From a virus, in IMG/VR virus record IMGVR_UViG_3300009529_000009: a stretch of DNA of 56,556 nucleotides; one strand, written 5' to 3'. The position numbers and the translations under genes were made by a program. Numbering within the stretch: the stretch's first letter is position 1; each line of letters starts with the position of its first letter. Below the pieces are notes generated by a model. The model searched no databases. It was not told where the DNA came from and worked only from the letters and a program-made list of their open reading frames with translations. Of the stretch, positions 48,683 to 49,835 are shown piece after piece.

Positions 48683-49438
48683 ATGACAAGTCGCGACACT
48701 ATGGTGGGGAACATGGTCAAAGGCAACCAAAAAGGCAATTCGTTTGAGCGCGAGATGTGCCGCCAATTCTCGCTCTGGTACAGCGGTGGCAAACTCGACG
48801 ATCTCTTCTGGCGCACCTCAGGCTCGGGATCACGAGCCACCAATCGACACATCAAGGGCAAGGATCTCACCAAGTTCCAGCACGGCGACATGACGCACGT
48901 GCGGCCGGAGGGCAGACCTCTGACCGAGCATATCTCATTCGAGTTCAAGTCGTACGCGGGCATCGATTTTCATGGGATCTTTCACACAGTGTCTCCTGAG
49001 AATTCGTTGCTCAGTTTCTGGGCGAAGTGCGTTCGTGACGCTGGGGAGAGCGGGCGTCTGCCCTTCCTTGTTACGAAGGTCCTCAATGGGCATCCAACCG
49101 CGTGGGTCCCGCGAGTCCTGTTGGAGATTTTCATGGCGTGGGGGTATCACGTCGACGCGAACCGTGGCGTTCAGTTCTGGATACCACCGTGTGAGGTGGT
49201 GACCAAGCGAACGTATCCTCGGAGGGCGAAGGGAGCAGCGAAGAAGAAGGCGGGTAAGGGAAAACCGAAGTTGGAGAAGTACACGTTCAAGACGGCGCAG
49301 TGTGTTGTCGGGATCTCGTTGGACGCAGTGTTCAAATCACTGGACACACCCGAGGACATCACGCGTCGCTTGGCGGCGGCCGATCCGGCGTCACTTCCCA
49401 TACCCCGAAGAGAGGACCCTACGGATGGACGGGCGTGA
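48683..49438 (+). CDS. putative PD-(D/E)xK Holliday-junction resolvase-like nuclease (Hjc-like) with Lys-rich C-terminal tail
   Basis: KGNQKGNSFEREMCRQF...WRTSGSGS...GDMTHV...EFKS matches the Hjc pattern KG..ERE...SGS...D...E.K. Confidence 0.5.
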   Translation: MTSRDTMVGNMVKGNQKGNSFEREMCRQFSLWYSGGKLDDLFWRTSGSGSRATNRHIKGKDLTKFQHGDMTHVRPEGRPLTEHISFEFKSYAGIDFHGIFHTVSPENSLLSFWAKCVRDAGESGRLPFLVTKVLNGHPTAWVPRVLLEIFMAWGYHVDANRGVQFWIPPCEVVTKRTYPRRAKGAAKKKAGKGKPKLEKYTFKTAQCVVGISLDAVFKSLDTPEDITRRLAAADPASLPIPRREDPTDGRA

Positions 49439-49835
49439 ATTCTACAGACGTGTACAGGAGCACGCGCACCTCACGTGGAGGGGTGTCAGGCAGGGAGTGA
49501 ACTCAACTGATGACGTAGTACTGATCTCGCATGATGGACATGGGTCGTGGCAGCCAGGCCACTACGCGGTGTCCATCTCTGCGATCGGCGAGCACAGCTG
49601 GGACGATCTGCAGGCTGTGTTGACTGGCAAGCGGCAACCGCGCATCATGTCGCACATGACCCGCATAGTCGGGTACTACTCGCAGATGCACAACTGGAAC
49701 GGCTCGAAGAAGGCCGAGCTGCATGATCGGCAAAAAGGGAACTACGGTGTTCCCGAGATGACCAAAGGGGACGGCAGTGTCAAAGAGGTCGAGAGACAAG
49801 AGGCAGCGAAACAAACAGCCCCTGCTGGGGTCTGA
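49425..49835 (+). CDS. small glycyl-radical-domain protein resembling the C-terminus of class III ribonucleotide reductase NrdD (GrcA/YfiD-like spare-part)
   Basis: TRIVGYYSQMHNWNGSKKAELHDRQ matches the NrdD/YfiD glycyl-radical region (R-I/V-x-G-Y ... F/W-N-x-G-K-x-x-E-x-x-D-R). The track ORF starts at 49302; the ATG with the best context is 49425. Confidence 0.5.
   Translation: MDGREFYRRVQEHAHLTWRGVRQGVNSTDDVVLISHDGHGSWQPGHYAVSISAIGEHSWDDLQAVLTGKRQPRIMSHMTRIVGYYSQMHNWNGSKKAELHDRQKGNYGVPEMTKGDGSVKEVERQEAAKQTAPAGV

Follow-up and report, generated by a model that had tools for sequence, protein, structure and literature searches.

We analyzed a 56,556-base stretch of viral DNA (IMG/VR record IMGVR_UViG_3300009529_000009; hereafter, the window) that proved to be a perfect palindrome, equal to its own reverse complement with 0 mismatches over its whole length and holding 28.3 kb of unique sequence. 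The ORF of about 136 aa that had been pointed out at position 49425 is a real gene with its own ribosome-binding site (RBS), and the mirror reported for it is a literal second copy (Table 1). The start codon is fixed because the homologues all open with MDGREF; at the other end, the protein had been taken to finish at DRQ, which was an error, since 33 more residues follow. The gene start overlaps the upstream nuclease gene by 14 nt, with the order kept in sister contigs, and because of this overlap, the 2 genes are probably co-transcribed. Within the window, the gene is surrounded by packaging and structural genes, not by genes of nucleotide metabolism.

Table 1. Coordinates of the glycyl-radical gene, its predicted parts, and adjoining features in the window
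Feature	Position	Strand	Remarks
PDDEXK_15 / RusA-like nuclease gene	48683..49438	+	Pfam PF24608, E 1.1e-10; phrog_244
RBS-like GAGAGGA	49410..49416	+	Direct sequence reading; 8 nt 5' of ATG
Stand-alone NrdD-type glycyl-radical gene	49425..49835	+	136 aa plus stop; called as 136-aa gene in four sister contigs
N-terminal domain, aa 1-74	49425..49646	+	Family-specific small alpha/beta fold: helix, three strands, two helices
NrdD-type glycyl-radical segment, aa 75-107	49647..49745	+	Beta-hairpin TRIVGYY plus helix NWNgSKkAELhDRqkGnY
Gly83 codon GGG, predicted radical site	49671..49673	+	Aligns with radical-motif glycine of full-length NrdDs
C-terminal tail, aa 108-136	49746..49832	+	Variable; predicted disordered, pLDDT below 50
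Identical second gene copy	6722..7132	-	Product of the window's palindromic structure

The C-terminal part of the protein resembles the extreme C-terminus of the anaerobic ribonucleotide reductase (RNR) NrdD, as the original prediction had proposed, with MTRIVGYYSQMHNWNGSKKAELHDRQ at aa 78-103. The R-I/V-x-G-Y glycyl radical motif named there is present in TRIVGYY and conserved across the family, with R80-I-V-G83-Y84 matching the radical fingerprint R-V/I-x-G-[FWY] expected on a C-terminal loop; of the W/F-N-x-G-K...E...D-R tail described after it, the helix motif is found, but it reads N-x-S-K rather than N-x-G-K, both here and family-wide. In HMM searches, aa 71-104 aligned with positions 531-561 of 562 of the Pfam NRDD profile (E 4.9e-6; 25.9 bits, 0.3 bits short of the gathering score of 26.2), and aa 75-104 aligned with positions 551-580 of 581 of TIGR02487 (E 2.9e-6; 26 bits vs a cutoff of 326, that is, as a tail and not as a full NrdD). 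An HMM built from 15 NrdDs matched the protein at positions 766-803 of 809 (E 2.8e-12), and profile-profile comparison (hhalign) with Planctomycetota NrdD tails gave E 3.8e-23. At the level of sequence, these alignments demonstrate that aa 75-114 are homologous to the NrdD C-terminus, including the predicted radical glycine G83 in TRIVGYY. The 37-residue tail was 57-62% identical to the NrdD tails of all lineages compared, including Planctomycetota and Elusimicrobia; we therefore discarded tail identity as a host predictor, as all lineages scored within this range and none was discriminated.

In the AlphaFold2 model, aa 1-74 form a small alpha/beta domain, confidently predicted, for which no known fold relative was found, and the radical segment comprises a hairpin (76-81/84-87) with G83 at its tip and a helix (93-103). 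This hairpin and following helix are common to the window protein and the C-terminal glycyl radical domain of class III NrdDs such as that of T4 (PDB 1H7A/1H79). Unlike NrdD, the window protein is without barrel, zinc ribbon, and ATP-cone, and its radical segment is fused to an unrelated domain of ~74 aa. The ten-stranded alpha/beta barrel with catalytic cysteines is missing from the 136 aa, with only the last ~30 profile positions matched, and so is the four-cysteine zinc ribbon upstream of the glycine loop; the window protein has 0 cysteines and most family members have 0-2. The NrdD zinc ribbon is thought to stabilize the radical loop. The idea that the N-terminal domain derives, in degenerate form, from the part of NrdD preceding the glycine loop was rejected, as hhalign aligned only aa 75-114 and gave no alignment of aa 1-74 with the zinc-ribbon region. 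Beyond the radical segment, the tail (aa 108-136) differed in length and sequence between homologues.

The protein belongs to a family of 859 clusters at 50% identity with E up to 1e-3 (568 with E up to 1e-10), all annotated as "hypothetical". Family members were located in uncultured phages and on the chromosomes of anammox and other Planctomycetota. Genome scanning was seeded with alignment A1, the broad 135-sequence alignment being too diverse. The stand-alone format recurs throughout: the 150 top matches listed were all 92-225 aa long and nearly all aligned from residue 1, and 76 of the 78 IMG/VR loci of the family were small ORFs. Mean column identity across 135 representatives was 18%, with the radical motif nearly invariant (R in 134/135, G in 133/135, and Y in 135/135), and R80, G83, Y84, W91, N92, S94, K95, E98, R102, G105, and Y107 were conserved in 126-135/135 diverse relatives. 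Together with the profile matches, this conservation speaks against a coincidental motif, and, judging from the alignment, the NrdD-type tail of the family is under strong constraint. Searches by tblastn of 50,697 GenBank phage records with the window protein, a marine member, and a 42-aa consensus found no family members, and a PHROGs search gave no family for the glycyl-radical protein. A sequence search of PDB returned chance matches only. The genes constitute a large, unannotated family of stand-alone proteins. The GenBank phage search also returned weak matches to true NrdD tails, and these were its only matches.

Several loci pair a family member, or a comparable glycine peptide, with an NrdD that is without its own. 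On a bacterial MAG contig (L101), the operon runs nrdR, NrdG2 activase (178 bits vs a cutoff of 131), NrdD, and family member; the NrdD spans Pfam profile positions 1-533 of 562, stopping just past the zinc ribbon and before the glycine motif, and the family member, 76 nt further on with its own RBS, covers profile positions 531-560 and is the only glycine carrier in this nrdR-nrdG-nrdD operon. In the phage of L024/L084/L085, a 97-aa family member lies 4.7 kb upstream of a 1630-aa NrdD that lacks the glycine tail and ends ...CENCNSGDVEGIEYYQ*, identically in two samples; a close relative of this phage (L039) has a complete NrdD tail. In L086 and L088, the phage NrdD is divided within the zinc ribbon, giving a body and a separate glycine peptide of 45-53 aa, which has its own RBS in L086. 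Splits or truncations affect three of the roughly eleven distinct phage NrdDs of this lineage, and an NrdD without exactly this segment was the only recurrent, structurally complementary partner that we found. By this comparative evidence, the family would supply the radical tail in trans to NrdD enzymes without a tail of their own.

The opposite arrangement, a complete enzyme plus a separate member, was also identified. One 2.9-Mb Planctomycetota contig encodes a glycine-motif NrdD (L158; frameshifted in the assembly) and, ~266 kb apart, a 130-aa family member (L189) that adjoins a universal stress protein gene. The Planctomycetota member also has a radical-SAM neighbor of the AmmeMemoRadiSam type, a gene without a known function. 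In MAG MHYY01, an NrdD (L160) and a family member (L164) occur together, the co-occurrence resting on MAG binning. In Scalindua, family members show conserved chromosomal synteny. At the level of gene content, these genomes demonstrate the PflB/GrcA arrangement of a full-length NrdD and a separate member in one genome.

The likening of the protein to GrcA/YfiD of Escherichia coli (autonomous glycyl radical cofactor, InterPro IPR011140) holds as an analogy of architecture but not as a family assignment. GrcA is likewise small (~14 kDa) and stand-alone, is a C-terminal copy of the radical domain of a large enzyme, and shares its genome with the full-length enzyme, as do bacterial members of this family, and the universal stress protein gene beside the Planctomycetota member is a further likeness. 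However, GrcA copies pyruvate formate-lyase (PFL), whereas the window protein copies NrdD; with Pfam and NCBIfam scanned up to E 10 (a range in which HMMER removes most matches beyond about E 0.1), the only models returned were NrdD models, with no match to PFL-type Gly_radical (PF01228) or GrcA models, and the N-terminal domain is unrelated to GrcA as well as to NrdD. The L101 and L024 members further differ from GrcA in being the only radical carrier for a tail-less enzyme, and we know of no PFL that is naturally without its radical domain. The N-terminus of GrcA is disordered (PMC13450708), whereas that of the window protein is predicted to fold. Bacteriophage T4 encodes Y06I, a spare-part glycyl radical protein that is activated by the host activase and acts on the host enzyme (PMC8683613, citing Wagner et al. 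2001); the enzyme rescued by this PFL-type protein is host pyruvate formate-lyase, whereas the window protein is NrdD-type and would serve ribonucleotide reduction. A precedent for a divided RNR is class II NrdJa/NrdJb, in which the barrel and a small C-terminal part of the catalytic subunit are separate chains, and no split class III RNR was described in that analysis (PMC9669993). NrdJb belongs to a different RNR class and differs in having a zinc finger and redox cysteines and no radical glycine.

The reading that we favor, held at about even confidence, is that the product of the window gene acts in trans as an autonomous glycyl-radical cofactor of the NrdD type. We infer that an NrdG-type radical-SAM activase would take the C-alpha hydrogen from Gly83 at the tip of the TRIVGYY hairpin, and that the activated hairpin and following helix would enter the barrel of a class III NrdD without a working radical domain, restoring or providing the radical that starts ribonucleotide reduction. 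The family-specific N-terminal domain may replace the NrdD zinc ribbon as a scaffold or docking unit. In this phage, the most likely partner would be the host NrdD, either oxygen-cleaved or commandeered, so that infected cells would continue to make dNTPs when oxygen is low or fluctuates; the radical could be supplied by the host's NrdG or by an NrdG of phage origin, such as a related phage carries. More broadly, and tentatively at somewhat under even confidence, we propose that phages, anammox bacteria, and other Planctomycetota share a hitherto unrecognized family of NrdD-type autonomous radical proteins, that the one described here re-arms an oxygen-clipped host class III RNR or replaces its tail, and that the same module let some lineages evolve two-subunit class III RNRs. 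The original prediction had offered either repair of a damaged host enzyme or remaining parts located elsewhere in the genome; both arrangements occur in the family, the split one in L101 and L024 and the other where a full-length NrdD and a member coexist, and either may apply to this phage.

The original prediction also stated that the window holds no NrdD barrel and no NrdG, which our scans of the window bore out, and it suggested looking beyond. Neither was identified in the ~44 kb of this phage covered by sister contigs L190-L199, the longest of which is 47.5 kb. The genome is incomplete, and capsid and tail genes were not recognized in the phage sequence seen, so an NrdD of the phage's own that lacks a radical domain could be encoded in the remainder. 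The window protein would in that case be the obligate small subunit of a two-component phage class III RNR and its only radical carrier, an arrangement that does exist in phage L024/L084 and in bacterial L101 and that gains from the frequency of split or truncated NrdDs in this lineage. We regard this as possible but unlikely for the present phage, as the ~44 kb seen includes the whole replication and recombination module, the usual site of such genes, and NrdD lay within 10 kb of the gene in only 1 of the 76 small-ORF IMG/VR loci. Further, on a related phage contig (L185/L186), a homologue with 54% identity to the window protein lies 8.2 kb from an NrdG2 gene (148.6 bits vs a cutoff of 131) that stands alone among small early genes, and the 29 kb seen contains no NrdD. 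The same contig links a phage member of the family to an activase.

NrdG was identified only in L101 and L185, by scanning called neighbors against Pfam and NCBIfam, and an approximate E. coli NrdG sequence used as a query had no match in the loci. A CxxxCxxC screen for activases near the small genes gave SPASM peptide maturases, a B12-binding radical SAM protein, PA0069-type enzymes, and a 79-aa L024 fragment; none of those annotated was an NrdG, and the L072 candidate matched no family. A 453-aa radical SAM protein beyond the window, on sister contigs, was likewise set aside as an activase because it is a SPASM thioether-type maturase following Cys-rich proteins. Clustering of the neighbors round the small genes recovered lineage synteny only (portal, terminase, and MuF genes in marine phages; GroEL, Lon, Ddl, and HgdD-like genes in Scalindua) and no universal partner gene.

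Returning to an autonomous cofactor, its reverse would be a decoy or inhibitor, in which a mimic of the NrdD tail titrates host NrdG or plugs host NrdD and so shuts down or re-routes anaerobic dNTP synthesis. Mimicry of segments of host proteins is common among phage gene products, and a stand-alone mimic of the activase substrate in phages without the enzyme would suit such a role, which we nevertheless consider improbable. A decoy needs neither the radical glycine nor the full downstream helix, yet both are conserved in 133-135/135 representatives; the family provides the only glycine carrier of the L101 operon, is conserved on anammox chromosomes, and occurs in a related phage that carries its own NrdG, and a DNA phage would harm itself by blocking the dNTP supply. 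A radical carrier for a non-RNR partner, or another role tied to the surrounding packaging and structural genes, appears very improbable. In many marine loci, the neighbors of the family gene are portal, terminase, or MuF genes rather than genes of nucleotide metabolism, and both the N-terminal domain without a fold relative and the AmmeMemoRadiSam neighbor in Planctomycetota would fit such a role; however, the complementary partner that recurs is NrdD without this segment, and the tail remains close in identity to genuine NrdD tails. A chance motif or a functionless, decaying nrdD remnant, suggested by a Pfam score marginally under threshold, is effectively refuted by the conservation data, with hundreds of clusters sharing a conserved N-terminal domain, own start codon and RBS, and near-invariant radical motif, and with the window gene kept at 96-98% identity in independent samples.

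Glycyl radical enzymes are all destroyed by oxygen via cleavage at the radical glycine. To our knowledge, the only repair is the spare part for pyruvate formate-lyase provided by GrcA/YfiD (and T4 Y06I). Spare parts are known for formate lyases only, according to a June 2026 review (PMC13450708), and both this review and a 2021 JBC study (PMC8683613) ask whether other glycyl radical enzymes have them. The family described here is a concrete candidate for class III RNR, the maker of DNA precursors in anaerobes, and, if the proposed function is correct, would be the first spare part for a glycyl radical enzyme other than pyruvate formate-lyase, one serving DNA-precursor synthesis. The NrdDs without exactly the segment present in the small protein are natural controls that make the question directly testable in vitro, and their loci point to a class III RNR built from two subunits, a form not described before. 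In phages, the gene may represent a new type of auxiliary gene by which the dNTP supply could be secured. For anammox bacteria and related organisms, the family suggests a means by which exposure to oxygen might be withstood.

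The 136-aa ORF has the ribosome binding site GAGAGGA 8 nt 5' of its ATG, and its first 14 nt are shared with the end, stop codon included, of the preceding PDDEXK/RusA-like nuclease gene. The stand-alone glycyl-radical ORF of the original prediction was confirmed and its interpretation supported, with the motif at aa 78-103; rather than closing the ORF, as had been claimed, the motif is followed by 33 more residues before the stop. The proposed HMM searches (Gly_radical and NrdD families) matched NrdD models: Pfam NRDD aligned to aa 71-104 with the final 31 positions of its profile (531-561 of 562, E 4.9e-6, 25.9 bits vs a gathering score of 26.2), and TIGR02487 (NrdD) to aa 75-104 with positions 551-580 of 581. 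As the Pfam and NCBIfam scans gave NrdD models only and no PFL/GrcA-type model, we do not place the protein in the GrcA family; the resemblance to NrdD first noted held, whereas that to GrcA is one of analogy only. In a profile-profile comparison of 18 homologues with the last 275 residues of 17 NrdDs (Planctomycetota, Elusimicrobia, and related lineages), residues 75-114 alone aligned (E 3.8e-23), which identifies these C-terminal 40 residues as the NrdD glycyl-radical segment and indicates that the first 74 are not NrdD-derived. The protein has zero cysteines and hence no NrdD zinc ribbon, and, with neither ribbon nor barrel, it was ruled out as an NrdD enzyme in itself. In the AlphaFold2 model (18-sequence alignment, mean pLDDT 71.6), the N-terminal alpha/beta domain is confidently predicted (pLDDT 82-93) and is followed by a beta-hairpin whose tip is G83 (76-81/84-87), a helical stretch (93-103), and a disordered tail (residues 108-136).

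Features of the window and of related loci
Feature	Locus	Coordinates	Strand	Remarks
Target ORF	Window	49425..49835	+	136 aa: MDGREFYRRVQEHAHLTWRGVRQGVNSTDDVVLISHDGHGSWQPGHYAVSISAIGEHSWDDLQAVLTGKRQPRIMSHMTRIVGYYSQMHNWNGSKKAELHDRQKGNYGVPEMTKGDGSVKEVERQEAAKQTAPAGV
Second copy of target gene	Window	6722..7132	-	Literal duplicate via the palindrome
1005-aa ORF with LAGLIDADG domain	Window	42250..45267	+	Mirror 11290..14307 (-); directly upstream of the portal gene
900-aa ORF	Window	50967..53669	+	Major Vault Protein shoulder domain (E 1.3e-17), plus one vault repeat
Uracil-DNA glycosylase-superfamily domain fused to family A DNA polymerase	Window	29614..32400	+	Single ORF
Cys-rich proteins and radical SAM/SPASM	L199, L194 (sister contigs)	L199 2..3292; L194 1..336		About 10 kb past the unique end of the window
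Cys-rich proteins and radical SAM/SPASM	L200	4377..8529
Neighborhood of the 130-aa member	L189 (Planctomycetota contig_4244)	10493..11981	-	Neighbors: universal stress protein gene and AmmeMemoRadiSam-system radical SAM gene (TIGR04337, 343 bits)
79-aa radical-SAM fragment	L024 (phage)	13252..13488		CxxxCxxC, stop-ended; between small gene and nrdD
First nrdD interruption	L088/L177 (178-kb phage contig)	8911..9884		About 1 kb
Second nrdD interruption	L088/L177	10849..11278		About 430 nt; holds a small zinc-finger-like ORF

On the best-supported reading, the protein serves as an autonomous glycyl-radical cofactor of the NrdD type. Gly83 would receive its radical from NrdG, the radical-bearing hairpin and helix would occupy the barrel of an NrdD without a functional tail, and the N-terminal domain would substitute for the zinc ribbon. 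The nearest functional analogues are Escherichia coli GrcA/YfiD and T4 Y06I, two PFL-type proteins that rescue oxygen-cleaved pyruvate formate-lyase (PMC8683613); the window protein shares their architecture, and the bacterial members share their genomic logic too.

Naturally split or truncated NrdDs were identified in a bacterial MAG and in several phages. An 81-kb MAG contig (L101), with the housekeeping neighbors leuS, lptE, and holA, carries nrdR, an NrdG2 activase (TIGR02495, 178 bits vs a cutoff of 131), NrdD, and a 101-aa family member in that operon order. This NrdD has an ATP-cone and spans Pfam NRDD positions 1-533 of 562; it terminates (...CGVCGSQNVPGVSWIEEIKG*) just past the zinc ribbon without the glycine motif; the 101-aa member, 76 nt 3' of it and preceded by an AAGGAGG site, covers NRDD positions 531-560, and the two, judged from their sequences, jointly constitute one complete NrdD. 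In one phage (L024, L084, and L085), an intein-containing NrdD of 1630 aa, identical in two independent samples, terminates ...CENCNSGDVEGIEYYQ*, where the sequence of a 55%-identical relative (L039) carries on ...EGMTRIVGYYSRVKNWNKSKLGELKDRQKGDYGV, and 4.7 kb upstream there is a family member of 97 aa. The radical-SAM fragment of this phage is possibly a decayed activase gene. In 2 further phages (L086 and L088), the NrdD chain breaks within the zinc ribbon, leaving a body and a separate peptide of 45-53 aa; this peptide bears the glycine motif together with the second CxxC and, in L086, has its own ribosome binding site. The last nrdD piece of L088/L177 encodes only the glycine motif and half of the zinc ribbon, and the 2 interruptions of this gene may be introns or homing-element insertions. 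Of the phage NrdDs of this lineage in IMG/VR, approximately 11 are distinct, and three of these were split or truncated; alignment with full-length NrdDs set all three truncation points side by side. The stand-alone proteins carry exactly the structural part missing from the naturally truncated NrdDs. Split class II RNRs (NrdJa/NrdJb) are known, and no split class III RNR is described in the same RNR analysis (PMC9669993).

We also scanned GTDB, with one genome per species. Genuine NrdDs of 770-1100 aa with a common ending (...C-x2-C-(G)S-x2-V-Y-G-I-TRIVGYYSRI-NWNKSK-GEL-DRH-GNY) were identified in Planctomycetota (including Brocadiia), Elusimicrobia, Omnitrophota, Auribacterota, and one nanoarchaeon. 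Large chromosomal contigs from anammox bacteria carry stand-alone members of 94-174 aa; the lineages concerned include Scalinduaceae (contigs of 2.28 Mb and 430 kb), Brocadiia (321 kb), Kuenenia hertensis (two paralogues), and Brocadia sapporoensis. The Scalindua member has conserved chromosomal neighbors (GroEL, Lon, Ddl, and HgdD-like genes) and is therefore a core gene rather than prophage cargo; one Kuenenia copy adjoins a phage terminase. The Planctomycetota contig_4244 (2,897,450 bp) encodes an NrdD with the glycine motif at ~1.88 Mb (L158, one assembly frameshift) and a 130-aa member at ~1.62 Mb, and MAG MHYY01 has an intact 815-aa NrdD (L164) plus a small member (L160), an arrangement that in both cases is the layout of PflB plus GrcA. 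The member, universal stress protein, and AmmeMemoRadiSam radical SAM genes are also adjacent on a second, independent contig. Members of this radical SAM family are similar to glycyl radical enzyme activases and have no known substrate.

Sister contigs with the same 136-aa protein lengthen the phage sequence both ways, with L190 and L194 covering positions 468-40647 of a 47.5-kb scaffold and L199 adding ~3 kb. Neither nrdD nor nrdG, which the original prediction had suggested seeking beyond the window, was found in them: our NrdD HMM matched the small ORF only (positions 766-803 of 809) and no barrel, and NrdG seeds gave no match. Their sole radical-SAM gene encodes a 453-aa SPASM thioether-type maturase. 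In a related 87-kb phage contig (L185/L186), whose small protein is 54% identical to the window protein, a true NrdG2 (148.6 bits vs a cutoff of 131) lies 8.2 kb from the small gene amid small early genes, and no NrdD was present in the 29 kb visible. Only 1 of 76 small-ORF IMG/VR loci had NrdD within 10 kb. Taken over all loci, family members coexist with full-length NrdD on bacterial chromosomes and are associated with NrdG in a single operon and a single phage. We give an even chance to the host NrdD, which would be repaired or taken over, as the partner in the window phage. A tailless NrdD in the unseen part of the phage genome is a distinctly weaker candidate; no capsid or tail genes were recognized in the visible phage sequence, and the genome is thus probably larger than this part. 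Action as a decoy or inhibitor is improbable, and service to a different partner even more so.

That the glycyl-radical similarity reflects chance or decay can be set aside as next to negligible, the homology to the NrdD tail and the strong constraint on the radical motif both being evident at the sequence level. A word-indexed search returned 17 small homologues (103-153 aa), and an exhaustive profile search of 1.84 billion representatives returned 859 proteins at E <=1e-3 and 568 at E <=1e-10, the best 150 of the 859 all being 92-225 aa and nearly all aligned from profile residue 1. Across 135 aligned representatives, mean column identity was 18%, and R80, V82, G83, Y84, W91, N92, S94, K95, E98, R102, G105, and Y107 were kept in 123-135, with G83 in 133. 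The other 2 (P0133 and P0164) have Ser or Asp at the radical-glycine position (TRIVSYF, SRIMDYW), which might reflect sequencing errors, inactive copies, or radical sites other than glycine. The marine/Scalindua (E 2.3e-30) and Brocadia/Kuenenia (E 1.4e-28) subfamilies were homologous to the window subfamily over the full length in profile-profile comparison, N-terminal domain included. Of 78 IMG/VR loci, 76 were small stand-alone ORFs and 2 genuine NrdDs; the protein of at least one contig (L038) has the same C-terminal stretch, as compared, as the B. sapporoensis member (L119), so some "viral" IMG/VR contigs may be bacterial. No member was found in 50,697 GenBank phage records and no match in PHROGs, and all members named by NCBI or UniRef are "hypothetical protein" (e.g., WP_070066661.1, Candidatus Brocadia sapporoensis). 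No description of an RNR spare part was found in the full-text literature, mostly outside subscription journals. Apparently new here are the proposed autonomous cofactor for class III RNR with its N-terminal domain, the large family of unannotated proteins to which it belongs, and NrdDs that naturally have two subunits. The finding is of high interest because an explicitly stated open question, whether spare parts exist for glycyl radical enzymes other than pyruvate formate-lyase, becomes a direct experiment.

The mirror copy of the target gene noted originally is exact, as the whole window is its own reverse complement with 0 mismatches (center 28278/28279), leaving 28,278 bases of unique sequence with each gene present twice. 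Sister contigs from other samples have the same region without the palindrome, which is most likely an assembly or amplification fold-back artefact. By gene content, the unique half is a phage fragment, encoding UDG-PolA fusion, RecA-like, FEN, Mre11-like, and Rad50-like proteins, an intein-containing terminase-like ORF, a T4-type portal, HU, a holin-like protein, the PDDEXK nuclease, the target gene, and a major-vault-protein-like ORF. The 1005-aa ORF, by its position and LAGLIDADG domain, is presumably the large terminase with an intein; at its position, sister contigs have a 657-aa (L190 and L193) or a 995-aa version (L191 and L192), so the insertion is polymorphic in the population. The vault-like ORF, an unusual gene for a phage, is kept as an 895-aa protein in sister contigs. 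The 453-aa maturase is preceded by proteins with Cys-rich C-terminal repeats (e.g., ...CESTCESLCE...) and is nearest to thioether-forming peptide maturases (PapB/SCIFF type, ~160 bits, below family cutoffs), and the pair looks like a phage system that cross-links a large protein, possibly a structural one. A 39%-identical maturase homologue (L200) is on the same IMG/VR contig as a small glycyl-radical gene (L018). The UDG-superfamily/family A polymerase fusion was also identified in 2 phage contigs of ~210 kb (L001 and L003), both with a small glycyl-radical gene.
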